Of a stretch of 64,000 nucleotides of DNA, positions 2,311-55,900 are shown in pieces. Below the pieces are notes generated by a model that was given only the letters and a program-made list of their open reading frames with translations, searched no databases and was not told the origin of the DNA. The stretch is taken from assembly GCA_000004985.1 (NCBI GenBank), contig GG738854.1; one strand, written 5' to 3'. The position numbers were made by a program, and so were the translations under genes. Each line of letters begins with the position of its first letter. The first letter of the stretch is position 1. This stretch comes from Naegleria gruberi (Eukaryota).

Positions 2311-2314
2311 AATG

Positions 2315-2480: not shown

Positions 2481-2504
2481 TGTTTATTAGTGATTTAAAC
2501 AATA

Positions 2505-3000: not shown

Positions 3001-3289
3001 ACTAGATATTGAAATATTTTTTCACATATTCTTAAATGAACAAACAAACCTTGCTTCAAATGGATGAATGACATGCTATGAGAAAAACAATAAAAACATG
3101 AAAATATCAGATATCCATGATTTTCACAAATTATGCTACAAGACTTGAAATTATACATTTAATAACATAATAAACATTATGAATTGTTGTTTTATTGTTG
3201 TTTGATTTGTAATTGGGCTATGAATCAACTCTGATAGCATCAAATATCGGAACTTGGTAAATTGACAACATGACGAAAATCTGATAATA

Positions 3290-6580: not shown

Positions 6581-6648
6581 NNNNNNNNNNNNNNNNNNNN
6601 NNNNNNNNNNNNNNNNNNNNNNNNNNNNNNNNNNNNNNNNNNNNNNNN

Positions 6649-15500: not shown

Positions 15501-15624
15501 TGATGATGTGAAAGTTTGGCAGCTTACGGATGTGAAACCACTCGAAGAATCATCAAAGTACATCACGTACTAGATGTTGAAATATTTTTTCACATATTCT
15601 TAACTGAACAAACAAACCTTGCTT
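12569..15624. repeat. Segmental duplication copy B (same block as 1-3056)
   Basis: Same ORF set as 1-3056 shifted by 12568 (66/12634, 1477/14045, 2477/15045). The sequence runs upstream into the left inverted arm at 12290-12568. Confidence 0.85.
14045..14878 (-). mobile_element. Second copy of the LINE-like 3' fragment, inside duplication copy B
   Basis: Identical 354-aa minus-strand ORF (14045-15109) with the same zf-RVT-like motif. Confidence 0.4.
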
Positions 15625-15991
15625 CAAAAAATCAACCAAACTCTCGTAATACCTTGCTTGGTTTTCGTTCCAACAATTCAAGCCAAACAACACAAGAGAA
15701 TCTATTTAATATAATTGGAAAATTCAATTGTATAAATGTATCATTCAATTTATCGGTGTTACTAAGGTTGTGCATTTTCCATTTTGGTTTACCGTCATCA
15801 GTATTAAGCGGATGCTCTTCTCCCGTCTTTAGTAAGAAACTGAGTGTTCTCCGTCTCATCCGTCCCCCGTTTCACCGTCACTTAGTACCATCTCTACAGG
15901 ATTTCTTGTAGCTCCTTTTTCAACAGAAAAAAAGAATTATTTAATAAGTTGTGCTCATTGTTGTAAGAATCATTCCTCATCTGAAACAATA

Positions 15992-17601: not shown

Positions 17602-18074
17602 AACCCAAACCCAAACCCAAACCCAAGGGCAAACCCAAACCCAAACCCAAACCCAAAGCCAAACCCAAACCCAAACCCAAACCCAAACCCAAACCCAAAC
17701 CCAAACCCAAACCCAAACCCAAACCCAAACCCAAACCCAAACCCAAACCCAAACCCAAACCCAAACCCAAACCCAAACCCAAACCCAAACCCAAACCCAA
17801 ACCCAAACCCAAACCCAAACCCAAACCCAAACCCAACCCAAACCCAAACCCAAACCCAAACCCAAACCCAAACCCAAACCCAAACCCAAACCCAAACCCA
17901 AACCCAAACCCAAACCCAACCCAAACCCAAACCCAAACCCAAACCCAAACCCAAACCCAAACCCAAACCCAAACCCAAACCCAAACCCAAACCCAAACCC
18001 AAACCCAAACCCAAACCCAAACCCAAACCCAAACCCAAACCCAAACCCAACCCACCCAAACCCAACCCAAACCC
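17602..18074. repeat. Telomeric repeat tract (CCCAAA)n joined directly to coding sequence
   Basis: About 78 units of CCCAAA with sparse variants (cccaagggc, cccaaagcc, cccaaccca). It is preceded by the N-gap 16207-17601 and is followed immediately at 18075 by in-frame NHL-repeat coding sequence (t caa tta tat aat cct tat gga gtt gcc...). Confidence 0.9.
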
Positions 18075-21000
18075 TCAATTATATAATCCTTATGGAGTTG
18101 CCATCAGTTCAAGTGATGAAATTTATATTGCTGATACAAACAATCATAGAATTCGTAAAATCACAACATCTGGTATTATTTCAACAATTGCTGGAACTGG
18201 AACAGCAGGATATAATGGTGATGGTTCATCTGCAACAAGTGCTAAATTATATTTTCCTTATGGAGTTGCCATCAGTTCAAGTGATGAAATTTATATTGCT
18301 GATATGGATATGTTCAATAATAGAATTCGTAAAATCACAACATCTGGTATTATTTCAACAATTGCTGGCGGTATAGGCGATGGACTATCAGCAACTACAG
18401 CTTACATTAATGCCATTACGTTCGAATTTTCCTCAAGTGGTGAAATTTATATTGCTGATACAAACAATCATAGAATTCGTAAAATCACAACATCTGGTAT
18501 CATTTTAACAATTGCTGGAACTGGAACACAAGGATATAGTGGTGATGGTTCATCTGCAACAAGTGCTCAATTAAATTCTCCTTATGGAGTTGCCATCAGT
18601 TCAAGAGGTGAAATTTATATTGCTGATACAAACAATAACAGAATTCGTAAAATCACAACATCTGGCATTATTTCAACAATTGCTGGAACTGGAACATCAC
18701 GGCTATAGTGGTGATGGTTCATCTGCAACAAGTGCTCAATTATATAATCCTTATGGAGTTGCCATCAGTTCAAGTGATGAAATTTATGTTGCTGATTACA
18801 ATAATAACAGAATTCGTAAAATCACAACATCTGGCATTATTTCAACAATTGCTGGAACTGGAACATCCGGCTATAGTGGTGATGGTTCATCTGCAATAAG
18901 TGCTCAATTATATAATCCTTATGGAGTTGCCATCAGTTCAAGTGATGAAATTTATATTACTGATACAAACAATAACAGAATCAGAAAACTTAGTCCTTGG
19001 TGCACTGGAAATGCCATTCTTTTAGATGGATCTTGTGAGTATCCATGTTTTGGAACTACAAACAAAATTCCAGCTGTTGTATGCTCTGGAAAAGGTTCAT
19101 GTATTGGCTATAATCAATGCAATTGCACAGCTGATTACTTTGGTTACAAATGTGATGAATTTTATTGCTATGAGTTGTTGAGAAATCACTCTGGTGTTTG
19201 TTCATCCCAAGGTATTTGTACTTCTCCCAATGAGTGCTCTTGTTCATCCGGTTATTATGGGGAAAATTGCCAATACTTTTATTGCCACTCTATTCCGTTC
19301 AACTCTTCTACAGTATGTTCGTCAGTAGGAACTTGTATTGGATTGAATAATTGCTCGTGTAATCCAGGATATTCAGGGTCGTATTGCCAAGACTTTACTT
19401 GTTATGGTGTTAGTTCTAAAAACACTACCGTATGTTCTTCTCATGGCACGTGTACATCTCTAAATAATTGCTCTTGCGTTACTGGTTATTATGGAAATAA
19501 TTGCGAGAATTTTGAATGTTTCGATATTCTTTTCACTAATTCTACAGTTTGTTCTAGCAGAGGAAAATGTTTCTCTCCTAACAATTGTACATGTGATTCT
19601 GGATATTATGGATCTAATTGTGAAATGTATGATTGTTATGGATTGTCCAAAAACAGTTCTAATGTATGTTCAGGGCATGGAAGTTGTACTTCATTCAATA
19701 ATTGTACATGTAGAGATGGTTACTTTGATTCTAAATGTGAGTCATTTAATTGTGCCGGAGAGAAATTCACTGGTCAAAGTCTTTGTCAAAATAATGGAAC
19801 TTGTTCTGGCCCTGGAAATTGTGTTTGTCCATATAAGTTTGGAGGAGCAAGATGTGAATATTTTAAATGTTTTTCAGTGACAGCCAACGAACCAAAAGTA
19901 TGCGGAGGACATGGTACATGTCTCAACTATAACAATTGTTCTTGCTCAGAAAAGTGGTTTGGAGAAGATTGTTCAGTTACTAATTGTTTTAATATAACAT
20001 CAAATTCTAGTTCTGTATGTGGTGCTAGAGGAAATTGTAGTGATTATGACAGGTGTACTTGTAATAATGGTTATATTGGTAGAGAATGTGAACATATTGT
20101 TTGTTATGACAGGATTGAAAGTGATAGAATGGTTTGCTCTGGAAATGGTAAATGTATATCACCAAATAATTGTACATGTGAAAGTGGTTTTGTTGGAAAT
20201 GAATGTCAATATCATGAAATTTATTTGAACACATCATCTGCAATGATATTTTCTTTCCATGATAGTCTAATGAAAATGTTGCCAAATGGCAGTGAAATAT
20301 TTTCATGTAATGATATTTTTGAAGAATCTGAACTAATGAAATTTGGCGAAAATTCTATTTTATGTCAATGGAGAAAGAAATCAATGCAAATTTATCTTGG
20401 TTTTGATTACACAATTCAACATTACTCGGTTATTCAAACCAAATTTAATTTTTCAATGATTGTGAACAGTTTAACCAATAATGATGTTTCTTCTTCCAGT
20501 TGTACATTTGGATACTCATTAACAGAAGCATCACCAATGTTAGATTTAGTAATACGTTTGAATTGTGATGATACTTTACATGGATTCACGAAAATGACAA
20601 GTAGATGGATATGTAGTCAATGTAGTGGCGTTATTTCATCATTGTTAAACAAATATTCCAATAGAACATTTATTCATATTCCAATTTCATATACAAACAG
20701 TTTAAACCCTATTCAAGGATATAAGATTATTAATTTACAAGCTCTTTATTCATCTGGAGTGACTAGTGAAAAATCAATAAGTAAGGAAGTGAAGATACAA
20801 ACCTATACAAAATCATTACCCCCTAGTTATTACTGGTTAAGTGATAATTTTGACGGAAAGGCATATTCCTGTATTGGTCATAATTGTATTTTAGAAACTT
20901 CATTGAATAGTTTAAATTCTTCAATTTCATATTCATTTTCTGGCTTTTTCAGTTTATTGAATACTGATTTATATTCCAAACAAATGGTTAGAATGATTAA

Positions 21001-38056: not shown

Positions 38057-40540
38057 TTAAATATCGAGAGGAAGAGCCCTCACATCTCCAACATTTGTAA
38101 ATGCAGCATACGAGCAATCAAACGAAGAATAATAACTCGATAAGATTATAGGTATCGAATTCTCCTCCATCTTTGAAATATTCAAACATGGTTGCAAGAT
38201 TGAAATCAATCTCTCCGTTGTTATATCCTCTGGATGCCTCACTAAATAATTTTGGAAAACTCCCAATACGTGATCAATCTCCTTTTTGATTTCAGATTGT
38301 GAAATTCCATTCCAGAAATCAGCAGAAAAGACATCAAATGCCTTGTAATACTCTGCAAATGCATTGTTCTTCTTTGAATTTTCCAATTCATAAAGCCATT
38401 CATCATTGTCGGTATTCTTTTCACCAAAAACTTCATAAATTGTTTCAATACTTGAATTATTCATTTCCTTCTTAATCTTGTCAATTGGTTTCAAAATGAA
38501 TTTTCTGGCAATATCTGCTTGTAAACTTTCACAACAAGATGTATCAATTAGCACATTTACATTGAATGAATCTGCCAATATGCACAATTTTTCAGAGTCA
38601 ACCACACATGCACCAACAATCGTATAGTACCTTGAAGTTTTAGTTCCCAAGTTTCCAACCCTAGCTTTCGAACAACTGACACCAATTCTAGGGTAGAAAT
38701 CAGGTCCAACCTGATTGATAGCCTTTGCAAGTTTGAAAGCCAGCTCAACACTCTTTTCAATCAGCTTATCTTGCTCTCCTGGAGAATTAGCCGAAAGTGC
38801 CAATTGTAAAGCAAACTTTGGAAGAACTTGCAAATTAGCTTTGTATACTTTTGTAATCGGTCCAATAGCATTCATAATCTTTTTAAAACCATTCTCAATA
38901 TCACTTGGCTGTTCCATTGAGAAGAAACCCTTCAATTGACAAGTGATTACAACAGTTTGCTTGACAGATAATCCCATTTGGAATAGTGAGCCACCTCCCT
39001 TCTTGGAAGAATGAATTCTCGATTCCAAATCTGCGTGGCTAACTCCATCATTAGTTGTGCCCATGGAATGTTTCGATTCAGCAAAGGATTCATTCTTCTT
39101 GATATTGACAGATCCAAATTCCATCTCAATTGTTTGTGAGTTGATTAATTGTTCAAAAACGTGTTCTGGGATGAAAGATTTAATTTCCTTCAGCCATTGA
39201 ACAGTTGTTTTCAAATTTCCAAAAATGGAATTAATTTCCTTGAAAACTGAATTACCAATATTGACAGTGTCAAGATCAAGGACCTTAATAAGCTCAAATT
39301 GACGTTCTAAAGCTTTCATTGGTTTGGAAACTATAAATCCAATGATAAAACTGACAATGACACCAATAATCATGACAGTGACAGCCACACCAACACTAAT
39401 GCCAGTTGTCATTGTCAAGGATGCAATCACTTCTTCTTGATAAACAACGAAATAGACATTCCATTTCAAATTATCAATCTTGTAAGTGTAATGAGATATG
39501 ATATAACCTATTCCATTAACTGTTTCAGTAATTCTTTTTGGTAATTCATTCAAATCACCATATTTTACACTAATTTCTTTCATTAATTGCCCAGCATCTC
39601 TTTCTGTCAAATTATAAATATGTAAATTAGTATTTCCGTCAGGTGTCAAAGTATTAATTGACCCACCAACTAGAATTCCATTTTGCTGAGAAACCAAACA
39701 AAACCCTTTACCAATCAACACAATCTTACTCAAGAAATCAACAATATTCTGCAGTGAAATGTTTACTCTTGTCACTCCTGTCACCACTTTCTTACCTGTC
39801 TTGTACTGAACTGGATCATACAACTTTGAGGAGTGATAAATGGCCATACTTGATCCATAAGGTTTATAAGCATTGCCATAAACACCTTCAATGCCCAATT
39901 GAGTAGATAATATTATGGTCGAATTGTAATAATCTTGATCTAGGGTATAAAACGGAGTTAAATCCACAGTTGAGTTATATTTGGTTACAACTCCAGTTGT
40001 TACATTTATGGTATCACGCAAAGTTCCGATAAATCCAGGAGGTTGATAGGAATAAACTGGATAGGTTTTGTTTCCAGAACCTGCAGTAGAATAGGTGTAT
40101 TTAGTAGAAGGAGGACCAGCAAAGAAATATCCGCAACTAGAAGTTTTGAATTCTGCAAATTTGGGAAACAGATAAGTTCTAAAATTGGAAGTAGTAGCAA
40201 TTCCATTGTTGTAATCATAGGCAATGGATTTGGAGAGTTTTCCAAGGGGATCCATAAAGGTATTGAGATAGGAAGTGATTTTTTCTCCATTGACATCTAT
40301 CAAGTCATTTGACAGACCCTCAATCACTTGCTTTGTTACAGTGAATGAAGCAATCCAGATACAAAAGCAACTCATGATAAGAAGTATGGATACTACAGAA
40401 ATGATAAATAGATTAATTGGAATTCTTCCACCACACACTCGATAGAAAGTTGAAACATTTTCTTCAGGATTTTTTGAAGTGTCGTTTGACATTACTTCTT
40501 CCATGTCATCGTGGGTTACAGGGACAATTACTTGGACCAT
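38057..40540 (-). CDS. Two-TM receptor with an extracellular Cache-like sensor domain and a C-terminal class III nucleotidyl-cyclase homology domain that looks catalytically degenerate
   Basis: 827-aa ORF. TM1 is LFIISVVSILLIMSCFCIWIASF. A roughly 300-aa extracellular region is Cache-like: MAIYHSSKLYDPVQ...VTGVTRVNISLQ...GFCLVSQQNGILVG. TM2 is ISVGVAVTVMIIGVIVSFIIGFIV. The cyclase-like domain is KQTVVITCQLKGF ... RIGVSCSKARVGNLGTKTSRYYTIVGACVVDSEKL (cf. RIGIHTGxVVAGVIGxKxPRYDVWGDTVNxASRME). The metal-binding Asp residues and the GDTVN motif are replaced. The stop lies 32 bp from the stop of the preceding convergent gene. Confidence 0.55.
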   Translation of the reverse strand: MVQVIVPVTHDDMEEVMSNDTSKNPEENVSTFYRVCGGRIPINLFIISVVSILLIMSCFCIWIASFTVTKQVIEGLSNDLIDVNGEKITSYLNTFMDPLGKLSKSIAYDYNNGIATTSNFRTYLFPKFAEFKTSSCGYFFAGPPSTKYTYSTAGSGNKTYPVYSYQPPGFIGTLRDTINVTTGVVTKYNSTVDLTPFYTLDQDYYNSTIILSTQLGIEGVYGNAYKPYGSSMAIYHSSKLYDPVQYKTGKKVVTGVTRVNISLQNIVDFLSKIVLIGKGFCLVSQQNGILVGGSINTLTPDGNTNLHIYNLTERDAGQLMKEISVKYGDLNELPKRITETVNGIGYIISHYTYKIDNLKWNVYFVVYQEEVIASLTMTTGISVGVAVTVMIIGVIVSFIIGFIVSKPMKALERQFELIKVLDLDTVNIGNSVFKEINSIFGNLKTTVQWLKEIKSFIPEHVFEQLINSQTIEMEFGSVNIKKNESFAESKHSMGTTNDGVSHADLESRIHSSKKGGGSLFQMGLSVKQTVVITCQLKGFFSMEQPSDIENGFKKIMNAIGPITKVYKANLQVLPKFALQLALSANSPGEQDKLIEKSVELAFKLAKAINQVGPDFYPRIGVSCSKARVGNLGTKTSRYYTIVGACVVDSEKLCILADSFNVNVLIDTSCCESLQADIARKFILKPIDKIKKEMNNSSIETIYEVFGEKNTDNDEWLYELENSKKNNAFAEYYKAFDVFSADFWNGISQSEIKKEIDHVLGVFQNYLVRHPEDITTERLISILQPCLNISKMEENSIPIILSSYYSSFDCSYAAFTNVGDVRALPLDI

Positions 40541-41801
40541 TTTTTTTAAGTTGTTTTGATTCTGGTAATGTCAGTTGCCGTCGAATATAGTTGTAAGAAT
40601 TAGAGATGAATTTTGACACCTAGTGACATTATTCGATAACTTTGACTGAACCAATTGAATAAGAGATTGTTTTCTTTCAAAGCCCATTTTTTCTTAAAAT
40701 ACTCTCTAATATGAAAAAATCTCCTCCTTTCAAACAACTTGTAAATAATGATTTTTGTTCAGTTGACCATAATAGTAGAACTTAATCCACTTTTTAGGAC
40801 AAAAAATTAATTTCATTAGAGATTAACCCATTGAATCTCCAAGTCTCAGCGCTGAGACTCAAATTTTACGTCCAGCAGTTTTACATTTCTAGATTTTTGT
40901 TGAAATTGGTGAGGTTTTCAAACTTAATCTCTGATTAATTGAACACCCTAAGGAAATTGTAATTTCAAAATAGGTTTGGCTAGATTCTGGAGGAATGGTT
41001 TCCAATGATGTATCATAATTGAAAGGAATCTCTTTTACATTCATTTTGGAACCATTATCTGATAAATATTGTGAATGAGATTCATAGGAGTAATTGTTCA
41101 AACATCAATTAAACACCAACATCAATCTGTAGCAGTGATTGGAATTTACTAATATTAACACGAAAAGGAATAAGGAATAATATTCCAATACATTTTCTAT
41201 ATCATCTATTGATCAATTTGTAGCAGATTCTGCTGCGTATCTTTCATAGAAGGCTTGATGATAACAACCATCATCATACAACAAGACCTTATTGGTTGAG
41301 GCAACATTTTGTTGCGTTTCGGAATTTCTTGTTTGTTGCCTCACAGATGTAAGCAAACAAGCAAGCAATCAAAAGAGAATCCTCAATCGTGTATGCTTGA
41401 TGGAAGCTTGCCAAATTTCCATGAATATTCAATTCAGGTTACGATTTTGTTTGACCTCGTCTACCAAGATCGCCAGCTACTGGCCTTATCAAAAAAAAAA
41501 CGCTCAGAATGTACCTCAACGCCTGAGTACACAATACACCAGCGCAAAACCACCCAACATACACTTCACGACGTCAAACGAAAAAGGCACAATCGAAAAT
41601 ACATTTTAGTGGCTTGGCGCCAATTGCAGCAATATTTGTGTGCACAACAACGTTCCAAACAGAGAGATTGCCTGCTGTGTGGTTGTTCGATTACAAGAGC
41701 TTTTTCAAACTCTAGAAAAAACTTCACTTTCGCCTCTCAACAATACAATGATAACAATTTGGTGATAAAGAACTTGACCGAAAAGAAACCACAACAACAA
41801 T

Positions 41802-44024
41802 ATGAACAATAAGAAAAATGATAGAAACTCTAAACAAAAGCATGCTGCTGCTGGAAAGAAAAAACCATCATCTACTTCATCTAGTAGTACATTAGCCATT
41901 AATGATGATAGTGTTAACAACAATACATTTCAGACAGCAACATCGACATGCCATAACCATCACAAGGAAACAAATATGAGCAATGCGGGTGTTAATAGTG
42001 ATGATCATACCGAAGGACATCGCATAAAAGTTGAAAGTAGAATAATAGACTCTCCTACCAATACTTTTACGAATAGCGTTCCATCAGCACATCAACAATA
42101 TGACCTGAATAATGATACTAGAAGAGAATATTCTTCATCATCATCGTCATTGGTATCATCAAGTATTCAATCAAGAGGTTTGGAAGGAATATTCTCTCAA
42201 AAGAATGTGGACACAATGATGAATAATATTATTCAGCAAATATTGTCAACATTATCTGTGCAACAAGAACGCATGAATAACATTGAGCAAAAGCAGGACC
42301 ACGGTTTTGCATCCGGCAATACATCATCCATGTTGGTGCCGAATGCATCCACAGACCAACACCAAAAAATACAAGCATGTACCTCCCATGTAAACCATCA
42401 ACAACCTGAAACTCCATCATCCAATGCAAACCAGCAACAACTAGTTATGGATAGAGGTTCCACATCTTCATTCAATAATGGTAGTGGAGATGTTGGCCTG
42501 CAAGGTTCTTCTTCATTCCCATCTTCATCTCATTCCTTATCCAATAATACCACCAATTCTTCTTCTTCCACCAGTACATCTAGCTCGTCATTTAATGATT
42601 CTAAAAAGTTCATGCTCTCCCCTGGTACTAATTCCTCCACCCTAGAATTTATCAATGCTCATAACAATCCTATGTTAGCATCATCTGCAAATCAACAACT
42701 TCATTCACACAATGATCAGCTATCAGATGCTGGTATAAGTCAATTATTCGAGGAATGCAACCATTCAACATTCAACATTGAGCCGCATTCATCCTTGTCA
42801 CTTACAAAATCCACATCTGAATTCAACTTGGAAGATTATCGAGATTTATTCAGTGATGTCAGATCTGTAAGAGAGTTTGGAGATGATACCACCAGTCAAC
42901 AAGAACCAAACACCACCATGGTGGCCCCACAACTACAATCAAACAACAGCAATAGGCAGCAATCAGGTACAGTACTAGATAATTTAAATGAGCCAATGCT
43001 CTGGGGCATGCTTCGCCAATTGCTCAATAATGATACAAACCCTCAAAATGCTCATCAGTATGCATTCAACAATGTATCTGATACCACTTTGACCGCTAAT
43101 TCATCTAATGCTCCTTCTCCATACTATCAAATGGTCTCTACCACATCGAATATACCACCTCCATCAACCAATAATTTTCAACAGAATACCAATAATTTTC
43201 AGTCTCAACCTTATTCCAATGTTAACAATAATAATATGGCTCAATCTTCCCATAATAACAATAATGGAAATAATGGTAATAATATGAGGCAATTAATTTC
43301 TAATCTATATTCCAACTTGAATACAGGTCGACAATCACAACCTGTACTCAAATTGTCAACAATACCAAATTACCAATCAGAGGAAATAGCAGACGAGGAA
43401 GAAGATACAGAAGATTTCCAATTATCTAACCATCCAGCTGATCCACCAACCCTTGATTCAACCAAGCAAATTTTGGGAAGTATTAGAAAGACTCTGTCAC
43501 ATAAGACCAATAACACACCAAATCAATTTCAACACAAATACGGACAACAGGGAGTTCAACAAAAACCCAGTGATGGATTTATCAAATGGCTCTCTGGGCA
43601 ATCGAATCAACAGAATAAGGAGCAAGAAACTGAACTGGTGGAAGAAGCCACTCATCATCAACCAAATTCCAACATGTCTCAATTTAAATTTTATAATGAA
43701 ATGATCTCTGAAAGGAATAACATCCATCCTGCCTCCTCTTCTAGCGATAATACTCCTTCTCATAGTAATAACAGCAATAATCCAATGAAACCTCTCAAAA
43801 TTTTTCAACATGATCCACACAAACAAAAGAGGAAGAAGGATTTACAAAATGGAGAACACATTATCAATTTCCAATCCCCTCAATCCTCTTCAGATAGTAT
43901 AACAACCACAACCACCTCAACAGAATCCACCCCTTGTCCTGAAAAGAATGTAAAAAGAAAACGTAAAGACGACAAGAAGAATGAAACCTCCACAACGAAG
44001 AGTACAAAGAAAAGAAAAGACTGA
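41802..44024 (+). CDS. Low-complexity S/N/Q-rich protein with a Lys/Arg-rich C-terminus (likely nuclear); unknown function
   Basis: 740-aa ORF with an ATG start at 41802. It contains long Ser/Asn/Gln tracts and the C-terminal motif KRKRKDDKKNETSTTKSTKKRKD. Confidence 0.5.
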   Translation: MNNKKNDRNSKQKHAAAGKKKPSSTSSSSTLAINDDSVNNNTFQTATSTCHNHHKETNMSNAGVNSDDHTEGHRIKVESRIIDSPTNTFTNSVPSAHQQYDLNNDTRREYSSSSSSLVSSSIQSRGLEGIFSQKNVDTMMNNIIQQILSTLSVQQERMNNIEQKQDHGFASGNTSSMLVPNASTDQHQKIQACTSHVNHQQPETPSSNANQQQLVMDRGSTSSFNNGSGDVGLQGSSSFPSSSHSLSNNTTNSSSSTSTSSSSFNDSKKFMLSPGTNSSTLEFINAHNNPMLASSANQQLHSHNDQLSDAGISQLFEECNHSTFNIEPHSSLSLTKSTSEFNLEDYRDLFSDVRSVREFGDDTTSQQEPNTTMVAPQLQSNNSNRQQSGTVLDNLNEPMLWGMLRQLLNNDTNPQNAHQYAFNNVSDTTLTANSSNAPSPYYQMVSTTSNIPPPSTNNFQQNTNNFQSQPYSNVNNNNMAQSSHNNNNGNNGNNMRQLISNLYSNLNTGRQSQPVLKLSTIPNYQSEEIADEEEDTEDFQLSNHPADPPTLDSTKQILGSIRKTLSHKTNNTPNQFQHKYGQQGVQQKPSDGFIKWLSGQSNQQNKEQETELVEEATHHQPNSNMSQFKFYNEMISERNNIHPASSSSDNTPSHSNNSNNPMKPLKIFQHDPHKQKRKKDLQNGEHIINFQSPQSSSDSITTTTTSTESTPCPEKNVKRKRKDDKKNETSTTKSTKKRKD

Positions 44025-44091
44025 TTTTCACTAGTTTGGCAATGAACTATATGAAATTAAACACTGATTATTTGGAAATGAAATTTATATC

Positions 44092-45165
44092 TTAATAGTT
44101 GGAATAGTTAAATGTGCCTTCAATGGACTTAATCTCTGCCATATAATCTTTTCTTGCCTCAACATCAGCAATCATCCAATCCATAATGAAACGAAGGAAT
44201 AGTTTGCCATCGCATCGTATATATACAATGTTTGAAGAGCTGGATTCTCTTCTGAGTGAAGGTGAGGATGGGAACCTTTCAAATTTTTTCTTTGTGAAAG
44301 ATGAGCTTGAGGATGGAGAGTAAGGATTCGAATAAGAAGAACTTAAACTTCCATATAAAGAAGTGGATGATTTTCTGTGAGATCTAGAAGCAACCATCAA
44401 CGGGGTTGGGGAGGACTCACTATTTGACAATTTTGAAAATTCTCTCAACATGAGCAATAATGAATCAGGAGAAAGTGCCAAAAGCTCTGAAATATTTTCC
44501 TTCAAAATATTGGAAAAGTTTCTTGCCATCTCCAAAATTACACTTTTCATAATTGAATGCAACAAGTTAGTATCCACAACTCCTCTATCTACACCACTGT
44601 ACACATCATTGATAAAACTTCCATCGTAAACTTTGATCAATTGTCCAAAAAGTTTAAAACAATTCTGAGGTGAAATGTTCATTTGAATTTCATGCTTCAA
44701 ATGTGAAGCTAATGAACCTTGAATCATGTATTTTTGTGAGAAAATTAGGAGGGAGAGACCTTCTTCATCGAGTGAGTATTCTAAACTACCAGTGTAAAAG
44801 CTTTTTACAATTTTGTAAAGTGCTGTTTCTTCGAATAAATCATCAAGGATCAGTTGACCACATAAATTCTCTGAAAAATTGTTGGAGGAGAAGAGTGTTT
44901 GGAAGAATTCAGAATTTATGGATAGAATGCCTTTGTAAACTGAAAGAGTTTGTTGTAATTTTGTAAGAACAATTTGAAAATCTGAAAATTGTGAATTGTC
45001 GAATAATTTTGCAGTGAAATTCGAAACATCCTGAACGTAAACTTTCTTATCTTCATAGGAACGGTTAGTTGAGGATTGAAGGAAGGCTGGAACAGTAGAA
45101 ACTGATGAACGAGACATTTTTTTCTTATTGAAAATTGTTTCGTTTAAGAATTTTTCTTTTATCAT
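44092..45165 (-). CDS. BTB/POZ-domain protein
   Basis: 357-aa ORF. Residues about 55-150 read FSDFQIVL..LSVYKGILSINSEFFQTLFSSNNFSE.LCGQLILDDLFEETALYKIVKSFYTGSLEYS, which matches the BTB consensus (DV.L.V.....AHK.VLAA.S.YF..MF). Confidence 0.5.
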   Translation of the reverse strand: MIKEKFLNETIFNKKKMSRSSVSTVPAFLQSSTNRSYEDKKVYVQDVSNFTAKLFDNSQFSDFQIVLTKLQQTLSVYKGILSINSEFFQTLFSSNNFSENLCGQLILDDLFEETALYKIVKSFYTGSLEYSLDEEGLSLLIFSQKYMIQGSLASHLKHEIQMNISPQNCFKLFGQLIKVYDGSFINDVYSGVDRGVVDTNLLHSIMKSVILEMARNFSNILKENISELLALSPDSLLLMLREFSKLSNSESSPTPLMVASRSHRKSSTSLYGSLSSSYSNPYSPSSSSSFTKKKFERFPSSPSLRRESSSSNIVYIRCDGKLFLRFIMDWMIADVEARKDYMAEIKSIEGTFNYSNY

Positions 45166-45970
45166 TCAACCAAATTTCATGCAGTTACCTTTTTTGGAGT
45201 GAATATTTTGATCATGCTTACCAATTTGCAAAAAAAGATCAATCTGATAATCTATTAATAATGCACACAATTGATTGTTGATCGTTGAATCTCTGTAAAT
45301 GACATTCGTTGATTGCTGACAGAGTTTGATTGAAACAATGCAAACTTATTAACACCAAACAGTAGATAACCACACCACCTTCCAGAATGCATTCTCTTCT
45401 AATTTACTTTTCTTTCAAACTTACTTTCAATTTATAAAATTAAGCAATGTTAAATTTCCTTAATATATAATTTTTAATATTCTTGCATTTTCGTACCTAG
45501 TTAACTTATTGATTCACTAATTCTTTCATAGGACTAATAAATTTCCAAATTCTCAATAGCGTACGAATTGAAAAATTGTAAAAACAATTTCACCTTCCAA
45601 ATAAATACATATTCTCACCTCCAAATATGGCCATACTCAAACATTATCGAAATTCACAACAATTACTCAGCCATTCTCCAAACCGACAAGATTATTCAAA
45701 CACCTACCCATTCATCATCCATTCCTCAATTTTCCTTCATCCAATTCCTCTTGCTCATCATTTCCGAAACCTCGCCATTCATCATGCAACATCACCTCAT
45801 CACCATTTTTGAACCAATCAAAATGCAACCCTCAACAACAATATTTCCATTCTCACAATGCAACATCACTTCCCAAACAGCCCATTCTCACAATTCACAA
45901 GCAAAATGCATTTTCAGAATCTGCATTATCGTTGTTGAATCAAATACACAACAACAACGCATAGAAAAAA

Positions 45971-46902
45971 ATGTCTAGCCAACCAACCAATTCAACATGC
46001 TCTTCTGATTGTTCTGCTTCAACTGTTGCTGCAGAAAAGCCAAAACTTTCCTTTGTTGTTTATTGTGCTTCGAGTAGTAAATTGGATGAAAAGTATTTTA
46101 GTGCTGCAACACAAGTTGGTGAGACTTGTGCTCAGAATGGAATTGGAGTGAGATATGGAGGTGGTAATTGTGGTTTGAGTAAGTATTTATGATGAGAATG
46201 CAACTTTTAATTATTCTATTTAATGTTCAATATATTTAATACAATTTAATAATAATATTGAAAAATATTTAATATACGTCTGATGATGAAATAAATTATC
46301 GGAATGCATACAATAGTGGGTACTGTTGCCAAATCATGCATGGATAAGGGTGGATACGTTGTAGGTGTCATCCCAAAGTTCATGGTTGATAAACAATGGG
46401 GAATGGAAAGAAATTTCATCTCTGAATTGGTCATTACCGAAACAATGCACGAAAGAAAAGCCAAAATGATCGAAGATACCGATGCCTGTGTTGCTTTACC
46501 AGGTGGTGTTGGCACCTTTGAAGAATTACTTGAAGGTTCGTTTTGCATTTCATCAATTTCTAATTTTCTTCCAAATTCAAATCCACACTTTCTCAACTTT
46601 CTTAATTTCTCAATTTCTCAAATTTCTTAATAATTTCCCAAAACAATTCTCAATTCATGATAACAGTAATCACTTGGAAAAAGCTTGGAATTTACTGCAA
46701 ACCAATTATCATTGTCAATGTCGATGGATACTACGATCCATTAATTCAATTATTCAACAATGCAGTCAATGAAAAATTCATGAATCCTAAACATTTGGAT
46801 TTATTCTCAGTTGTTAGTAAGGGAGAAGATGTTGTCAAGGCATTCGAAACTGCAGTTCCATGGGATAAGAATAATATTGAATTCATTTCTGAACTTCTTT
46901 AA
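45971..46902 (+). CDS. LOG-family protein (cytokinin riboside 5'-monophosphate phosphoribohydrolase / 'lysine decarboxylase-like'), 3 exons
   Basis: Exons are 45971-46178, 46317-46535 and 46667-46902. The introns are 46179-46316 (gtaagt...caatag, 138 bp) and 46536-46666 (gttcgt...taacag, 131 bp). The spliced protein contains the LOG signatures YGGGNCGLMGTVAKSCMDKGGYVVGVIP and [44 protein letters not shown]. Both motifs are assembled across the introns, which confirms the exon junctions. Confidence 0.85.
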
Positions 46903-47047
46903 GTTTCAGAAAAAAACAGAAAATTTCAAAAAGTAAAAACAATAAAAAAGTTAAATGACATGATTAATAATTCAAAATGACAATGCTCGATCTGTATTTT
47001 GAATTGAAAATTTCTTTGACATTTGTCACTTTAAAAAAAATCAAAAA

Positions 47048-49085
47048 ATGATTAATAAATGGTTTGGCAGTTCGTCATCACCACCGCCACAAGTTTCTTT
47101 TGGAAAGATAAATTCACCAACCAAGTTACCAACTAATTCAAAAGTTTCGGATGAAATTGAACAAAATATTCGAAAGGCTGCAAATGCAATTTTAAAGCAA
47201 GATTGGGAAGTTTTGCAAAATATAAATCTGGAATTGATCATTAATGATAATTCGGTGCAAGGAGAAACATTATTAATGACAGCTGTCAGAAAAAAATGTT
47301 CAAGAGAAATTATTGAATTTTTGGCTCAAGTTTCGAATATTGATTTTATGGTGGTACGTAAATAATTTCACAATTTAAATAATTTAATGTTTGAATAGAA
47401 AAATGTAAGTTTTTTTATTCGAAATACAAGAAATAATTCGAAACTTTATTAGCTTGAGGGAGAAAGTCTTTTAGAAGTAGCTATTCGAAACAAACGATAC
47501 AATACTATAAATCTCTTGAGAAAGAAATACAAGGTTTCTAATGAAATTCGTCCCAAATATTTAATTCAATATTTGTATGCAAAATTGATTTACAGTGATT
47601 CGAATAATTTTGAGGACTTTAGTCTTGACAGTTCTGGAGAGATTAATTGCAATTTCCTTTCGAATTCAAAAGAAGTGGCTTGTCAATTTTTCGAATATGC
47701 AAATTCGTACAGGTCTCTATTGGAAAGTATTGTAAACAAGTCAACTGCCAATGCCATGTCAGTAAGATATATTCTTTCACACAAATCAGTGACATTTGAA
47801 TGTTGGGAGGAATATATTGTGAAAATGTTTGCTGAGATGATGGCGTACAGCTATCCTCATATAATTCAAAAACCAATTTCCTCACCAGAATTAGTCAATC
47901 CTGAAATTGACAGATCAGCAAGATGTGTCATTTCAGGAAATAGAAAAAACAAGCTAACAAAAGTCAAATTGAATGGAATCGAAGTTTTAGAGAAATTTTC
48001 TACAGAAAATGATTTACAAAATGAATTGGACGTTTTTAAGAAAATCAAATGTGACGGAGTTGTTAAATTATTACACGACTTTACTGATGAATATGGAATT
48101 ACTCATTTAATTTTGGAATTGATGGATTGTTCATTGGCTGATTGTTCAACACAATTGACTAATTTTGGAGTTGATAATTTTGGAATGTTAATTCAGGTAT
48201 TATTTATTTGTGTGAAATGTTGTGAAACAATGAAATATTTGCATCGTGATAATATTATTCATTATGATATTAAACCTGCAAATATTTTAATTAACATGAC
48301 AGAGGTTGATGGAATTAAACTTGTTAAGGATGTGAAAATTGCAGACTTTGATGTTTCATTAATTGTTGAAAATGTTGAAACTTATTCAGCAACCATTGGA
48401 GGAACATATCAATATATGGTAAGTCATAATAATGTGATTTCTTGTATTAAAAGTTGTATCAACAAAGGCACCTGAGTTATACGAAAGATTACCTTTCCAA
48501 AAAGCGCAAAATAACTCAATGGAATATGTGTTAACTGCATTTGACGTGTATAGTTTTGGAGTCACCATGTTTGAGTTATTGGCTCGTAGGCATGTTGAAA
48601 CGGATGAGAGATTAGAGTCATTTTTATCTGCTAAAGAACTATTAGAAACATTTCCTTGCTTAACACATGATCAAGCTAGAAAATTAGTCAAAATTGGAAA
48701 CAGTTGTTTAGAAGCAGATCCTAAAAAGAGACCACCATTCGAAAAATTACACAAGTACTTCCTTGAGGTAACTGCTAGTATTTTGAAGAAACCAAAATCA
48801 GAAAGAAATCAGTTATATTCTCTGAGTTTGCAGCAATCTGATAGATATAAGATTCCTCAGCCAGTTTCTAATAACCATTTCACCGAACAAATTACTAAGC
48901 CATCCATAATTGAAAGTCCTGAGAAAAAAGACAAAAAACAATTAACCAACCCTCGCAGGAACCATTCCTCTAATAAGAGAATTGAGAAAGTAAGAGATAT
49001 TGAGCATACAAAAGGCTCTCCAAATGGAGACGAGATTAGGGCAGAAAACAGTGTTGGCAATAGAGGAAACCCAACTCAAAGATAA
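47048..49085 (+). CDS. Ankyrin-repeat + Ser/Thr protein kinase, 3 exons
   Basis: Exons are 47048-47353, 47453-48418 and 48468-49085. Intron 1 is 47354-47452 (gtacgt...ttattag, 99 bp). It joins the ankyrin repeats ...GETLLMTAVRKKCSREIIEFLAQ and LEGESLLEVAIRNKRYNTINLL. Intron 2 is 48419-48467 (gtaagt...aacaaag, 49 bp). It restores the subdomain VIII motif GGTYQYM|APELYERLPFQ. The catalytic loop is LHRDNIIHYDIKPANILI and the DFG-equivalent is IADFDVS. Confidence 0.8.
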
Positions 49086-49129
49086 ATTGTAATACTAACT
49101 CTTTCCAGCATGAGATATTTATCAAAAAA

Positions 49130-50439
49130 CTAGTTTTCAGTTTGAAAACTAATTGCCTTATTAACTATCCTCCTCGTTTCTGGTTTTAATAACAGCAGAG
49201 CATCAGGATTATTCCGATAATGGTCCAATAAATTAGTTGTTTCATTGTGAGCTCTCCTCGTTCCATAAAAATGATACATTTCATCGAATGGCTTGACATC
49301 CGTATGAGGTTGCAATCCAGAATTAATTAATTCCAAGCTCGTAGCAGGTTGCTGGCAATAAACACATTTCTCTAATAATCCTTCAGTAACTAGTTGACCA
49401 GGACAATTTAAAAAATTGTCTTGTTCTTTGTAATATTCCAATTCTGCAAAAGATAATCGATTATTGTCAGTTGTCATTGAATAATCGGCAGCAGTAAGAA
49501 TGTCTTGATCTGAATCATCCATTACTGGTGTTACTACTTGTTGCATTCTCTCTATAGTCTTGCTGTAATTATAAGTTACACAATCTTCACACAAACAGCA
49601 ATGATAACATGGAACAAACTGATAAACTGGTGGAGCACTCAAACATATCACACAAGTTTCAGTTTTCAAATCAGATGGTTTCGAATAGACATTATCAGTC
49701 ATGTGAGATTGATTGCTTCCCATTTTCATTTCCTATTTTTGTTTACAATTTCAATATTTAAAAATCAAGAAGAATCAGAATCACTTACAATCTTTTCTTC
49801 AACTTGTTTCAAATCACTTTCCAATCTATTACGATGCATAACTAATTGTTGTAAATTCATATTCGAAAGAGTATCTACAGCACTTTTAACAGTTGCCAAA
49901 GGTCCATGATTTTCCAAAACTCTTCTCAATTCTCCTCCTCCATTCAACCTCTCAGCAATCAAGTGGTCCAATCCATAATTCACCATATCATGAATTAATC
50001 TATTCAATGAAAACAATGCATATCCATAATAACATATATACAATACTTTTGATAAAAAAGAATCAAATCCAATTCCCAATCTCCATATGTGATATAAAAC
50101 AACAAATGAATCAGGAAAGCCACAAACATAAATCAACACATAATCAGCACTATTAATCGTCTGATTATACAAGAATACTAAATTCGGGATTAAAATATAG
50201 AAAATTGTCTTGAAACCAATAGATGAAACTCTTCTATTCATCATTGGATCCAGTGCCATTTGATCAAATTCATCGTCATCATAGAACCACCAATTATTAT
50301 ACTTTAATATTAGAAAAATCAATCCGATTGTGATGGGACTACATAGTATGGTCAGTATTCGTATGAGTTTGTGATAGAAGGCTCTATCACGTTCGGGAAT
50401 TGGAGAAGGCACAATAAGATTGATGAGGAATTTGTGCAT
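49130..50439 (-). CDS. Multi-pass membrane protein with a C-terminal RING-type zinc finger (putative membrane-anchored E3 ubiquitin ligase), 2 exons
   Basis: Exon A is 50439-49789 (217 codons; 4-5 hydrophobic helices, then a coiled coil ...LKQVEEKI). The minus-strand intron gtaagtgattctg...caaaaatag is 56 bp (plus-strand 49733-49788). Exon B is 49732-49130. It contains the RING pattern CVICLSAPPVYQFVPCYHCCLCEDC and a second Cys pair (FLNCPGQ...CVYCQQ). Both junction phases are 0, and exon lengths are multiples of 3. Confidence 0.7.
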
Positions 50440-50542
50440 TTTTTTTTAATTATTATTAATTTTTAAATTGATTGTTGGCGGGAAAAGAAACATGCGCAAA
50501 TTTGGGAACTATTTACAAATAAACTTTTACTTTACAATAATT

Positions 50543-51596
50543 TTAAAAGATGTGATCGTAAAATCTTTCAGTGAAAATACAATCCATATTTGTGGCCTCT
50601 GTAACCATAACAATAGTATTGTGTCTCAAAGAGTGTTTCAAATCCATGTAAGCCCTTTTCAATACTTTGGTGACATTGGCATTAGGAGTGAAAATGTGCA
50701 AGATTTGCTTTTGCCAAACATCTTCATTTTGAACGCACTTGTTGGCTGTTGTTACTCCTTCCAATTTCTTCTTCAACAAGACTGTGGCATCTTCCATAGA
50801 GAAGTGATCAAATACTTGACCATTCTTGTTTGGTTTGATATATTTGAAAGCTCTGGTGACAGAGACTCCATATTTCTTTCCATTGATAACAACCAAAAAG
50901 TCTGTCTTTTTACAATGCTCATTGACATAGTCAATTTCCATTTCAGTTTTGGTCAATTGAGCATTAAACATTCTTGTTACAATTTCACAAGACAAGGTTT
51001 CAGAAAATATACTACAACCACCAGCATTCTCTTCTTGAAAGACACGTCTAGATCCTTCACACATTCCTTGAGAAATCATTTTAAACATTTCCTGATTATT
51101 CTTGACATCAGAATTCAAATGTTTGGCCTTCTTTTGATTGGTTGGATAAGCTCTGTGCGTAATAAATGCAGGTTGATGAATATTATCAAATGCTCTTTCA
51201 GCCTTGTGATGGAAATCATAATAATTAGTTTCAATAATAAAATCATCACGAATCTTGTAAGTATTCGCTATAGAACGTTTCTTTCGTTGCTGCTGTTCTT
51301 TAGTCCTGCAAAAGATACGAAAGTCGTAATTTACTGGAGCCACAACTGGAAAGATACAGCCCATATTGGCCACAAAGAAGATGATGTTGAGTTGGAGTAG
51401 TCATGTTGAATTGATTGTGGTTGATAAATTCTTCCTTCTTGATCATCATCTTGTTGTTGTGATGTTGTTGTTGTTGTTCGTACTTTTCTTCTTGCTGGAA
51501 CATTTCAAACCGATCATGGAAAGCAACTTGATGATTCATCATTTGTTGTTGTTGGTTAGGGTAATGGCGATTATTATTATTGTTATTGATCATCAT
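50543..51596 (-). CDS. Hypothetical protein: N/Q-rich first exon spliced to a conserved-looking C-terminal domain of unknown function
   Basis: Exon 1 is 51596-51358 (MMINNNNNNRHYPNQQQQ...HHLLCGQYGL). The minus-strand intron gtatctttccag...tatcttttgcag is 52 bp (plus-strand 51306-51357). Exon 2 is 51305-50543 (TKEQQQRKKRSIANTYKIRDDF...FLVVINGKKYGVSVTRAF...). The phases are consistent (239 nt + 1 + 762 nt). I cannot assign a domain family from sequence alone. Confidence 0.45.
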
Positions 51597-52930
51597 CTTT
51601 GTGTGGTATAGTGGTGGTGGTTATTAAAGTATACTTTGATTTGTTATTATTATAATGGTTTATAGAGTGGATTACGAGAGAAATTGTGTGTTGTTTGGTC
51701 AAAGAAGCTACTACTTGTTCTATTTTGCTAAAATTATAAATATCTCTAGAGAGAAATTAATGAATGTTTTTTTGTGTTGTCTATTGCGAATTTGCATTAG
51801 AGGAAGAACTTGGTACCAACATCAACATTATTTTTAGATTGTAAAGTATGCTTGCGCGCCATTTATTGTTGTTATATTTTTGAAATAATAATAAATAACG
51901 ATATTTGTTTAAAAAATAGAAGGACCTGTTGATGGATCTTCATCAAATATTTTCACAAAATCAAAAACATGAATCATGACTAATGAACATATGAATTCAT
52001 CCATTCCAGTATTAAATTGAGTATTAATTCATCAACATCTAGATTATGAATTTTCCAAAAACAAACGAACATCATCAACCACACTTCGGAAGTAAATTAG
52101 CGTCATCTCTGATAACAAAAGTATTTTACCACATTATCTCTTATTTCCGTAGTGCATGATTAAACAGTAGTCGATAATTAATTGAGATTCCAAACACATT
52201 AATTGATATCATGACATCCTTCTTTGCAAAATCATCACACTCCAACTCTACATCAATTGACTTTATGAAACACAATCATCCCAAATCGTAAACATGTCCA
52301 TCCTTTTATGTTCAGGCAAGCATTGATAATTTCCTTCCGAGGCCATCATTCACTCAATTTATTTTAATCCCATTTGATGAATACTTATTGCACAACAGGC
52401 TGACTCTTTTATTGGATTGAGTAATATTCAACTACCGATAATGATGTTATCGAAATACAAAACCCACATCAGTTGAATAAGGACGCAATTTAGAATGCCT
52501 TTCTGACCACCATCAACGCACACAAAGTGTCAGTTAAGCGCTTCTCTCCACTAAAATTGTTTGATGGCTCATGACAAATTGCCTCAAACGCAAGGAAACT
52601 ACAATTTTAAAAAAAAGCATTCTTTTAGCCTCATTGGTTTGTTACTCGTTTTTTTGAAGAATGCCAGCTATTGTTATGAGTGGCACTACTGCCACAAGTA
52701 AAGTGATGGGATTTCACGGTTCTTTATTGGTTTGTATTTTAATGATTTCACTCTTTTTGGTTGACAAATATCATCATACAATGCCATGCTAATGTTTTAT
52801 TGGAATATCTTGTTGGAAATAATAGAAAGGTGGAACCATTACTCAAACAATTGTAAGTTTGTTTACTCTTTCGAATAGAAATTTTTACTTTCCAATAATT
52901 CATTGATAGATCGGTGCTGTAATTTCAAGC

Positions 52931-55900
52931 ATGGTTATTGTTTCTGTTGTAGCTACTGTTATTATGATTTCAACTTCTGTAGGTTACAATCCACCAGAGC
53001 CAAAACCAGATTCATTACAGGCCTATAAGAATACTGCCTATACCATCTATCCTCTTTTGAATGATGTTGATCCAAAAGGAAACAATCTCACCCTCGTCAA
53101 CATTACCCAACCATTGTACGGAACAGCCAAATTACTCGCAGGTAATAAGGTTCAATATACCAGTCCAAAATATTACGCAGGAAATGAAACATTTTATTAT
53201 ACAGTTTATAATGGATATGGATATGCAGAGAGTTATGTTAAAATTGAAGTTTTGAATAGAGTTCCAGAAATTGTAACCATCTATAAGGATATTTCAAAGA
53301 ATAGTCAAAACAATATCATTGATGTTTTCAATTATGTTACTGAGAGTGGAGCTCAAATTAGTGATGTAGATGGTGATATTTTAACAATTGTTAGTATTAC
53401 AACACCAAATGTTGTAGGAGCTGTTGCTACCATTGTTGACTCTCAATTCATTTATTATACTCCACCAACAGGTTATAATAGTGCTGACTTTTTCAATTTT
53501 ACCATTACTGATGGAAATTCAACTGTTAGTGACACTATTTATATCAATGTTTTGAATGATGCTCCAACCAGTAATCCAGATGATTATGTCATTCCAAAGA
53601 ATAAGGTTGCCTCACTCAATTTATTGGCAAACGATTATGATGTCAATTCTGACAATATTACCATTGTTACAGCCAAGTCAGGACTTGGTTCTAAGGGTGT
53701 TGTTGTCTTTTCAGATGATGGTCTCTCTGCTGAATATTATCCATCTGCTGATACTAAGGTCTATAGTGATGCTTTCGAATATACAATCACTGATGGAGAT
53801 AAGGAGTCGGCTACATATGTTTTTGTCAGAGTCAAGAATTCCCCTCCAACCATGGAAAGCAAAACCATTACCATTCCAAAGAACTCTGAGAATAATACCA
53901 TTTCTTTAGAATATGCAGAGAGTGATATTCTCGATACTGTAACAATTACTGTTTCTAAAAAGCCAACTAGGGGAACTTTCACACTTTCACAATTGTCCAC
54001 CTCCAATAACGTTAATTATTTGAATCAACAATGGATGGTTGTAACTCAAAATACTTACACTCTTATTTATACTCCTGAAAAGAGTGTTTCCTACACTGAT
54101 AGCATTACATTCAAGATTGATGATGGCTATGACTTCACATATGCCACCTTTACTCTTAATATTGTCAATTTGCCACCTGTCACTATTAATGATACCATTG
54201 TTTGTCAAAAGAATCAACAAGTCACACTAGATGTTGTTGCCAATGATTATGACTTGAATGGAGATGTCCTCAAGTTATCTTCTTCAGCTGCAGATTGGAC
54301 CAATAGCCGTGGAGGTGCTACAGTCTCAAGAGTTGATGATGTTCAATTGAAATATGTTGCCAAGAGTGGTTTCTTGGGTGAAGATGTTGCCTCATATGTT
54401 GTAACTGATTCTGACAGCACTGCTGCATTGACTTCTACTGGTTATGTTATTGTCACAGTTGTCAATACTCCTCCTGTTGCTGTTGATGATACTATCACCG
54501 TTCCAAAAGGAGTTCTTTCCTCTTTGGATGTATTAATTAATGACAGTGATCCAAACGGAGATGCCATTGATTTCAATGCTACCAGCTTTACATCTACAAG
54601 TGGTGTTGTTTCCAGTGTCAATGTTACTAGTCCAAGAAATTTGTTGAATTATCAAGCTTTTGATGTTGTCTATCAAGATAAGATTACTTATACCATTAAG
54701 GATATTGATGGGGCTACTGCATCTGCCACTATCACCTTAAATGTTGTCAATACTGCTCCCGTTGCTAATGATGATACTATTAGTGTCAAGTGGAATACAA
54801 GCATTGTTATTCCTGTATTGGCCAATGATTATGATCAAAATCCTGCTGATAGAAGCGTTCTCACTGTCAAGACAATTAATGCTGTTTCTTTGAGTGGAGG
54901 TGTTGCTACTTCTTTCAATGGTGGTAAGAGCATCTTGTTCACTCCAACACCTGGTTTTGTTGGAAGCTTTGTTTTTACTTATACTATTACCGATTCTGAT
55001 TTAGAAAGTAATGCTGCAACTGTTACTGTCACTGTTTTTAATAGTGCTCCTGTTCCAGTCAATGATCAAGCTACTACTCACTGGCGTGATACATCAGTTA
55101 CTGTTGATGTGCTCAGTAATGATTCTGATCCAGAGGGTGATAATCTTTATATTCTCAGTGCTACTCAACCAAGTAAGGGTACTGTTTCAATTGTAACTCT
55201 CGATAATGGAAAGGATGGTATCAAATATTCCATCTCATCTTCTCAACAATTTGTCGGTGAGGAAACCATTACCTATACCGTCACTGATTATTCCATGACT
55301 GCAGTAGCTACTCTTAAAGTAACAGTTACAAATCAAGCACCAGTCGCCTTGGGAGATTATGTCAAATTGCATTGGAGTACCTCATCTATTACCATTCCAG
55401 TTTTGGCCAATGATACCGATGCCAACAATGATCCAATTACTATTGGCACAGTTACACCTCCTAATGGATTTGCTGGTACTATTACCAAGATTGATTCAAA
55501 TACCAAACTTCAATTCGTTCCAACTGCTCAATCAAAGGGTGTTCAAGTTGTAACCTATGTTGCTTCTGATGGACAAACCACAAGTGCAGGTGCAAGCTTG
55601 ACAATTGAAGTTACCAATGCTGATGCTCCTTCGGCAAGCACAATTTCTAAAACTGTTCACTGGTCCACTCAAACTACTGGTACTACCATTACATTATTCT
55701 CATCAGCTCGTGATGGAGATGGTGATTTGAATCAAATTGATTTGGCTAGCTCACCAACTGTTGCTCCATCTCACGGTACAGTTACATTGTCTAATGGGGA
55801 TTCCAATACTCTTCCAAACGTTTTGTACAAGCAAAGTACTAACTATCTTGGTTCTGATACTTTCAAGGTACAAGTTACTGATGGTGCAGATAATGCCATT

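Follow-up and report, generated by a model that had tools for sequence, protein, structure and literature searches.

A three-exon gene predicted to encode a type-I LOG-family phosphoribohydrolase in Naegleria gruberi

The enzymes of the LOG (LONELY GUY) family, known for releasing active cytokinins through nucleotide cleavage, are classified into a dimeric type I and a hexameric type II (PMC5379747). AtLOG3 (2a33), LOG8 (1ydh), CgLOG (5its/5zbl) and the P. aeruginosa LOG (5zbj/5zbk), all of type Ia, each consist of a single PF03641 domain of ~180 residues. In CgLOG, Arg99 and Glu122 form the catalytic pair, and a prenyl pocket composed of Met, His, Lys, Glu and Trp residues has been defined in AtLOG3, CpLOG and CgLOG (PMC4979012). 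Among amoebae, DdLog (DDB_G0281309) of Dictyostelium discoideum is the sole LOG to have been characterized biochemically, its substrates being iPMP, BAMP and AMP (PMC11228631). The present study deals with the LOG gene at positions 45971-46902 of a stretch of Naegleria gruberi DNA (contig GG738854.1), which is referred to at its full length of 64,000 nt as the window. This nuclear gene very probably consists of three exons joined by spliceosomal splicing, and its product would be a type-I LOG-family phosphoribohydrolase of 220 amino acids (aa). The product is identical (100% identity, 100% coverage) to a public protein named 'lysine decarboxylase [Naegleria gruberi]' (P0001; NCBI, UniRef and EukProt), which sits on a 665-kb scaffold. 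This full-length identity means that the three-exon gene model was already known. The locus is thus a known, annotated and ordinary gene of a family that is widespread in bacteria and eukaryotes.

When the Naegleria protein is compared with the type-Ia LOGs, the same single-domain architecture is seen. The GGGxxGLMG and PGGxGTxxE motifs, the catalytic Arg/Glu pair and the Met/His/Lys/Glu/Trp pocket are common to both, and the predicted Naegleria fold matches the type-Ia structures with target TM-scores of 0.89-0.94. However, the identity is just 34-40%, an extra Ser/Thr-rich N-terminus of ~25 residues, which is probably disordered, occurs only in the Naegleria protein, and the Naegleria gene is broken by two apparently lineage-specific introns; its activity and dimer state are predictions. 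DdLog, also an amoebal type-Ia LOG, is comparable in size, with 200 aa encoded by two exons. Its greatest reported similarity is to plant LOGs (47-50% identity), whereas the Naegleria protein shares ~40% identity with AtLOG3 and most resembles proteins of Bacteroidota.

Membership of the LOG or 'lysine decarboxylase-like' family, which an earlier note on this DNA had proposed, was confirmed by profile searches. The product matches PF03641 with an E-value of 1.6e-39 (score 135.5 bits, threshold 27 bits; positions 1-130 of the 131 in the profile; Pfam scan) and TIGR00730 with an E-value of 4.6e-55 (186.1 bits against a cut-off of 96.35; positions 3-176 of 178). Both scores are far above the cut-offs, and the fold and motifs agree with them. 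The best relatives of solved structure by sequence are AtLOG3 (2a33; 1e-40), B. subtilis YvdD (1.6e-38), AtLOG8 (4e-36) and CgLOG (3.8e-33), and the alignments to AtLOG3 and YvdD are gapless at both splice junctions. There is next to no chance that the protein truly decarboxylates lysine, as its public name implies. Nothing other than that inherited database name and the Pfam title 'Possible lysine decarboxylase' speaks for such an activity, while the Pfam scan found PF03641 and PF18306 only, with no pyridoxal phosphate-dependent lysine/ornithine/arginine decarboxylase domain. In addition, the predicted structure, a nucleotide-binding fold of the Rossmann type, can be superposed on an AMP-bound LOG, and the family members CgLOG, Cg1261 and Tt1465 proved in tests to be phosphoribohydrolases that do not decarboxylate lysine (PMC4979012, PMC5379747). 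The public name is a historical family misnomer and should read LOG-family phosphoribohydrolase.

The AlphaFold model (pLDDT 92, pTM 0.86) has an alpha/beta fold, in which residues 1-25 form a low-confidence coil with no helix. In a Foldseek search of the PDB, the AMP-bound P. aeruginosa LOG (5zbk) was matched with an E-value of 5e-20, a target TM-score of 0.93 and a root-mean-square deviation of 1.6 A. The top 21 matches were all dimer-type LOG-family structures, that is, type-I LOGs (CgLOG, AtLOG3 and AtLOG8 included) and B. subtilis YvdD; type-II LOGs and PpnN were found far lower. The residue roles were taken from structural work on CgLOG, AtLOG3 and MmLOG, with a constant numbering offset of +17 from CgLOG. 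The catalytic pair corresponds to Arg116 (in MHERK) and Glu139 (in PGGVGTFEE); the phosphate-binding residues to Gly133, Val134, Gly135, Thr136 and a Ser within positions 34-36; and the adenine-binding residues to Met113, Lys117 and Glu138. The prenyl pocket would be formed by Met113, His114, Lys117, Glu142 and Trp146, and all five are identical to those of AtLOG3 and CgLOG. The counterparts of Glu142 and Trp146 are supplied to the N6-prenyl pocket by the partner subunit (PMC4979012). Arg116, Lys117, Gly132, Gly135, Thr136 and Glu139 are invariant in an alignment of 37 sequences (A1).

These data characterize the Naegleria protein as a predicted type-I, dimer-type and Ia-like LOG. Its matches to type-I entries of the PDB have E-values of 1e-40 to 2e-26, as against 5e-11 to 9e-9 for the type-II entries 1wek and 5wq3. 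The extra N-terminal alpha-1 helix that serves in hexamerization is lacking, and Trp146, not Met or Leu, occupies the prenyl site. An assignment to type II was rejected on account of these weak matches, the lack of the helix and Trp146. A PpnN-type nucleosidase was also rejected: the model NF038390 gave 14.7 bits against a cut-off of 450, the product is a single domain of 220 aa as against ~450 aa, and the PpnN structures match only the core of the model (target TM-score ~0.35).

The structure of the gene is given in Table 1 together with the other features of the window. The spliced coding sequence is 663 nt long and has no internal stop, while reading through either intron meets stop codons; in intron 1, in-frame stops are present even though its length is a multiple of three. 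The G+C contents of the introns are clearly below those of the exons (32-42%). For both introns, GT/AG termini, a restored reading frame and stops on retention were seen, as would be expected if they are U2-type spliceosomal introns. For comparison with alternative models, every open-frame GT-AG intron pair in the two regions was enumerated (n = 120), and the products were scored with a profile of 113 homologues from which the Naegleria and Willaertia gene models had been left out. The junctions given in the earlier note (46178/46317 and 46535/46667) rank first among the 120 models at 286.2 bits, followed by a runner-up at 270.7 bits. They proved exact to the base: the model is the best of all those scored, and its product equals the public annotation.

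Table 1. Positions of the parts of the LOG gene and of other features in the window
Feature	Positions	Strand	Description
Exon 1	45971-46178	+	ATG (45971) to first base of Met70 codon; low-complexity N-terminus (residues 1-25), first beta-strand with CASSS (32-36), GGGNCGL of the first glycine-rich motif
Intron 1	46179-46316	+	138 nt; GTAAGT...TAG; phase 1 in Met70 codon (A/TG); 19% G+C
Exon 2	46317-46535	+	Residues 70-143 (part); MG of motif 1, MHERK (113-117), whole PGGVGTFEE (131-139), then LLE
Intron 2	46536-46666	+	131 nt; GTTCGT...CAG; phase 1 in Val143 codon (G/TA); 27% G+C, 3.8% G
Exon 3	46667-46902	+	VITW (143-146, Trp146) through C-terminus; TAA stop at 46900-46902
Upstream region	45560-45970	+	411 nt between the BTB-like open reading frame and the LOG ATG; presumed promoter and 5' untranslated region; 6.6% G, 29% C
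BTB-like open reading frame	44092-45165	-	Divergent from the LOG gene
Spurious open reading frame	45568-45978		136 aa
Kinase gene	47048-49085		Ankyrin + kinase
Kinase gene intron	48419-48467		49 nt
RING-type gene intron	49788-49733	-	56 nt
3-kb stretch, first copy	3-3060		99.9% identity between copies
83-nt tandem duplication in first copy	2314-2481
168-nt-period array, first	4625-6386		56-codon period; 81-93% matching in both arrays
N run	6581-6648
(AACCCA)n array, first	6649-7123		~79 copies; (TTTGGG)n on the other strand
Gap	7765-11217		3.4 kb
3-kb stretch, second copy	12571-15628
83-nt tandem duplication in second copy	14882-15049
N run	16207-17601
(AACCCA)n array, second	17602-18074		~79 copies; (TTTGGG)n on the other strand
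168-nt-period array, second	18074-18981

It had also been claimed that the introns split both signature motifs. This holds for the first one: GGGNCGLMG (residues 63-71), which represents the GGGxxGxMG motif, is divided by intron 1 into GGGNCGL and MG and is restored only upon removal of that intron. It does not hold for the second in its canonical form PGGxGTxxE, as PGGVGTFEE lies whole in exon 2. Intron 2 is located three residues past this motif and parts it from the conserved VITW of the same helix (LLE/VITW).

The genes of related amoebae provide further information on the two introns. In N. lovaniensis (C9374_000820, P0002; L001:10001-10877), the orthologue is 72% identical and has an intron 1 of 123 nt in phase 0 and an intron 2 of 97 nt. 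Its intron 1 (L001:10205-10327) starts at the end of the Met codon, 2 nt further downstream than in N. gruberi, while its intron 2 occurs in the same codon and phase as in N. gruberi. A third Naegleria-like amoeba, known from metagenomes (L011:831-1485; 66% identity to N. gruberi and 72% to N. lovaniensis), lacks intron 1 (GGGNGGLMGTV is contiguous) and carries an intron 2 of 37 nt, again in the same codon and phase. Neither intron is found in Willaertia magna (ABK040_004296, P0032; 51%), which has a single intron of 40-43 nt elsewhere (GGK/VIG), or in Acrasis kona (P0052; 51%), whose gene is intronless. The position of intron 2 is therefore well supported by its conservation in three Naegleria-like species; intron 1 has support as well, though with the offset of 2 nt. 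Both introns appear to be lineage-specific additions: these three species have intron 2, and intron 1 is confined to N. gruberi and N. lovaniensis. The 2-nt offset of intron 1 may be explained by a slide of the intron or by two separate insertions at nearly identical sites. In N. gruberi the 'TG' of the Met codon follows intron 1, at its acceptor end, whereas in N. lovaniensis it precedes the intron, at the donor end.

The comparison with N. lovaniensis also bears on whether the intron segments are retained, or the locus is decaying or mis-modelled, so that no full-length LOG protein would be made. The length of intron 1, divisible by three, is compatible with such a state. However, both segments contain in-frame stops, their G+C content falls to 19-27%, and all catalytic residues are intact. 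In tblastx, N. gruberi and N. lovaniensis match at 46037-46177, 46304-46543 and 46654-46902, with ends close to the exon boundaries. The 72% identity extends across the three exons, while the alignment scores of the intron sequences were not clearly above those of shuffled sequences (z = 1.3 and 2.1). Conserved exons together with unalignable introns are the pattern expected when the exons are under purifying selection. Retention or decay is accordingly very improbable. Outside the LOG gene, no gene common to the two loci was found by tblastx between positions 40000-55000 of the window and L001 with 10 kb on either side, so that the order of genes around LOG differs between the two Naegleria species.

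If the spliced gene is expressed as modelled, its product is predicted to act as a homodimeric phosphoribohydrolase that cuts the N-glycosidic bond of N6-substituted AMP. A substrate could be, for example, isopentenyladenosine 5'-monophosphate derived from the turnover of prenylated tRNA, and the products would be the free cytokinin base and ribose 5-phosphate. By analogy with the Dictyostelium enzyme, some activity on plain AMP is also probable.

Several points weigh against the reading of the locus as a spliced gene for a type-I LOG phosphoribohydrolase. The splicing was deduced from homology and comparative gene structure, and the conservation of intron 1 is inexact, its sites in N. gruberi and N. 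lovaniensis being 2 nt apart. With respect to function, our literature search found neither enzyme assays nor measured cytokinins for Naegleria, and enzymes of the LOG family may act as nucleosidases on nucleotides in general (PMC8989509, PMC11228631).

The last two points also touch the conclusion in the earlier note that the gene shows the organism to have cytokinin-type nucleotide metabolism. This was an overreach, since membership of the LOG family alone is no proof of it (PMC8989509, PMC11228631). The same gene and fold could serve housekeeping nucleotide catabolism or salvage, as a general nucleosidase of purine/pyrimidine nucleoside 5'-monophosphates that produces no cytokinin; we consider this possible, though on the unlikely side. 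Enzymes carrying PGGxGTxxE are not all cytokinin-specific (PMC8989509), and DdLog hydrolyses AMP besides cytokinin nucleotides (PMC11228631). Furthermore, the NCBIfam equivalog NF058542 (CtkRMPhLog) was not reached (131.1 bits against a cut-off of 300), which agrees with such a role, as does the outcome of the literature search. As NF058542 belongs to a library used by NCBI for bacterial and archaeal annotation, this shortfall restricts what can be said of function and leaves the family assignment untouched. On the other side, the five prenyl-pocket residues are the same in AtLOG3, CpLOG and CgLOG (PMC4979012), and the PpnN model is, as described above, far from matched. A cytokinin oxidase homologue in Naegleria (PMC7049301, PMC9312180) would moreover be of little purpose without cytokinins: N. 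gruberi has been reported as the sole eukaryote beyond land plants with a homologue of this enzyme, CKX (PMC7049301), and the extracellular-vesicle proteome of N. fowleri includes an entry listed as 'cytokinin dehydrogenase' (PMC9312180). The support that these two reports lend to a cytokinin role is circumstantial. Given the intact prenyl pocket and the cytokinin oxidase homologue, cytokinin metabolism in Naegleria is plausible, and the probability of a dedicated cytokinin role for its LOG may be put at a little over one half.

The origin of the heterolobosean LOG is a separate question. Following N. lovaniensis, the database matches are 52-56% identical, some of them on eukaryotic contigs and many from Bacteroidota. 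Eukaryotic contigs are represented by P0006, which adjoins kinesin and EF1B genes, by P0054, which adjoins a RasGEF gene, and by P0004, whose neighbour encodes a GspF-like protein with runs of low complexity, while P0007, with an ECF sigma factor and LysR as neighbours, is in a clearly bacterial context. When bacterial species genomes were scanned, Bacteroidota were at the top among the matches listed. The Bacteroidota TIGR00730 proteins (Paludibacter, Paludibacteraceae and metagenome assemblies labelled 'Bacteroidota bacterium') are typically 192-195 aa long. At 52-56% identity and ~210-225 bits, they are the closest to the Naegleria protein outside Heterolobosea and on a par with the Willaertia and Acrasis orthologues. 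Unlike the Naegleria gene, they are intronless and in bacterial contexts, and they have no N-terminal extension.

Neighbour-joining (NJ) trees were built on 189 columns by a simple distance method, with sampling biased to the best matches of N. gruberi itself and almost no other eukaryotic lineages; the taxon labels rest on a few named proteins, gene context and the bacterial genome matches listed. In these trees, the heterolobosean orthologues (N. lovaniensis, Willaertia, Acrasis) cluster together with eukaryote-context metagenome sequences. The group received a bootstrap value of 44% on its own, plus a further 40% with the bacterial P0007 inside. In 99 of 100 bootstraps, the clade that it forms with the named Bacteroidota leaves out AtLOG3, the plant-like representatives, YvdD and the P. 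aeruginosa LOG. The Kimura distance from the N. gruberi protein is 0.70-0.72 for the Bacteroidota proteins P0007 and P0031, 0.77 for Acrasis, 0.79 for Willaertia, 1.10 for AtLOG3 and 1.20 for YvdD.

We tentatively suggest, as one possible history to which we give rather less than even weight, that the heterolobosean LOG is not of the plant or Amoebozoa type and was acquired by an ancient Bacteroidota-like transfer, followed by the stepwise gain of spliceosomal introns. Under such a transfer, the gene would have had no intron at the start (as in Acrasis), would have gained intron 2 in the Naegleria stem and intron 1 later, and would then have undergone the 2-nt shift. Bacterial contamination as the source of the sequence is ruled out by the two introns, the intron-containing eukaryotic neighbours and the occurrence of orthologues on large heterolobosean scaffolds.

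Two of the contigs with homologues showed further features. In one (L006, Logan contig SRR25336392_35179), the close LOG homologue P0004 adjoins a gene at L006:2123-3550 whose product of 475 aa matches T2SSF (GspF) weakly and contains long runs of Asn, Lys and Ser. This neighbour resembles the mitochondrial type II secretion-like system of heteroloboseans, jakobids and malawimonads, which suggests that the contig comes from an uncultured protist of one of these kinds. In the other (L007, JBCBQB010000073.1, from a Bacteroidota metagenome-assembled genome), P0007, the bacterial LOG closest to the heterolobosean clade, lies 1.6 kb upstream of a gene at L007:3302-4435 whose product of 377 aa matches SLOG cluster4 weakly; this could be a second, divergent LOG-superfamily gene.

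Around the LOG gene, the flanking genes carry short spliceosomal introns, so that the setting is eukaryotic. In the kinase gene, removal of the intron restores GTYQYM/APE; this junction, like those of the LOG gene, is fixed by homology. The introns of the LOG gene are longer than those of the kinase and RING-type genes, as had been noted before, and within the neighbouring genes of the window, which delimit this comparison, the statement is correct (138 and 131 nt against 49 and 56 nt). Intron statistics for the whole N. gruberi genome were not found in the literature search. We attach no significance to the difference, since the orthologous intron 2 spans 37 to 131 nt. The region upstream of the ATG, in which the promoter and the 5' untranslated region presumably lie, is strongly depleted of G on the + strand, and this composition accounts for the spurious open reading frame there. 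The Rfam scan of the window gave no match.

Elsewhere in the window, repeated sequences were observed (Table 1). Each of the two telomere-like (AACCCA)n arrays starts right after an N run, and these may be telomere-like repeats in an interstitial position or telomeric contigs that scaffolding has joined. A 3-kb stretch, with its internal 83-nt tandem duplication, occurs twice. The two copies flank the gap and represent either a recent segmental duplication or an assembly/haplotype artefact. The second of the two arrays with a 168-nt period begins exactly where an (AACCCA)n array ends. As this period is divisible by three, it would fit a repeated protein module; the translated consensus presumably resembles an NHL/beta-propeller-type repeat.

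For the genome of N. gruberi, the finding of the LOG gene matters little, because the gene model is public and the family is widespread. For the window, the gene is a clean internal control: both of its splice junctions are fixed to the base by homology, which indicates that the GT-AG intron rules applied in the earlier note work there. If the tentative transfer from a Bacteroidota-like source is true, the cytokinin toolkit of Naegleria would, together with the reported chlamydial origin of its cytokinin oxidase, be a mosaic of bacterial genes. Finally, since Naegleria combines a LOG whose prenyl pocket is intact with a cytokinin oxidase, the idea that a free-living or pathogenic amoeba produces cytokinins can be put to the test.

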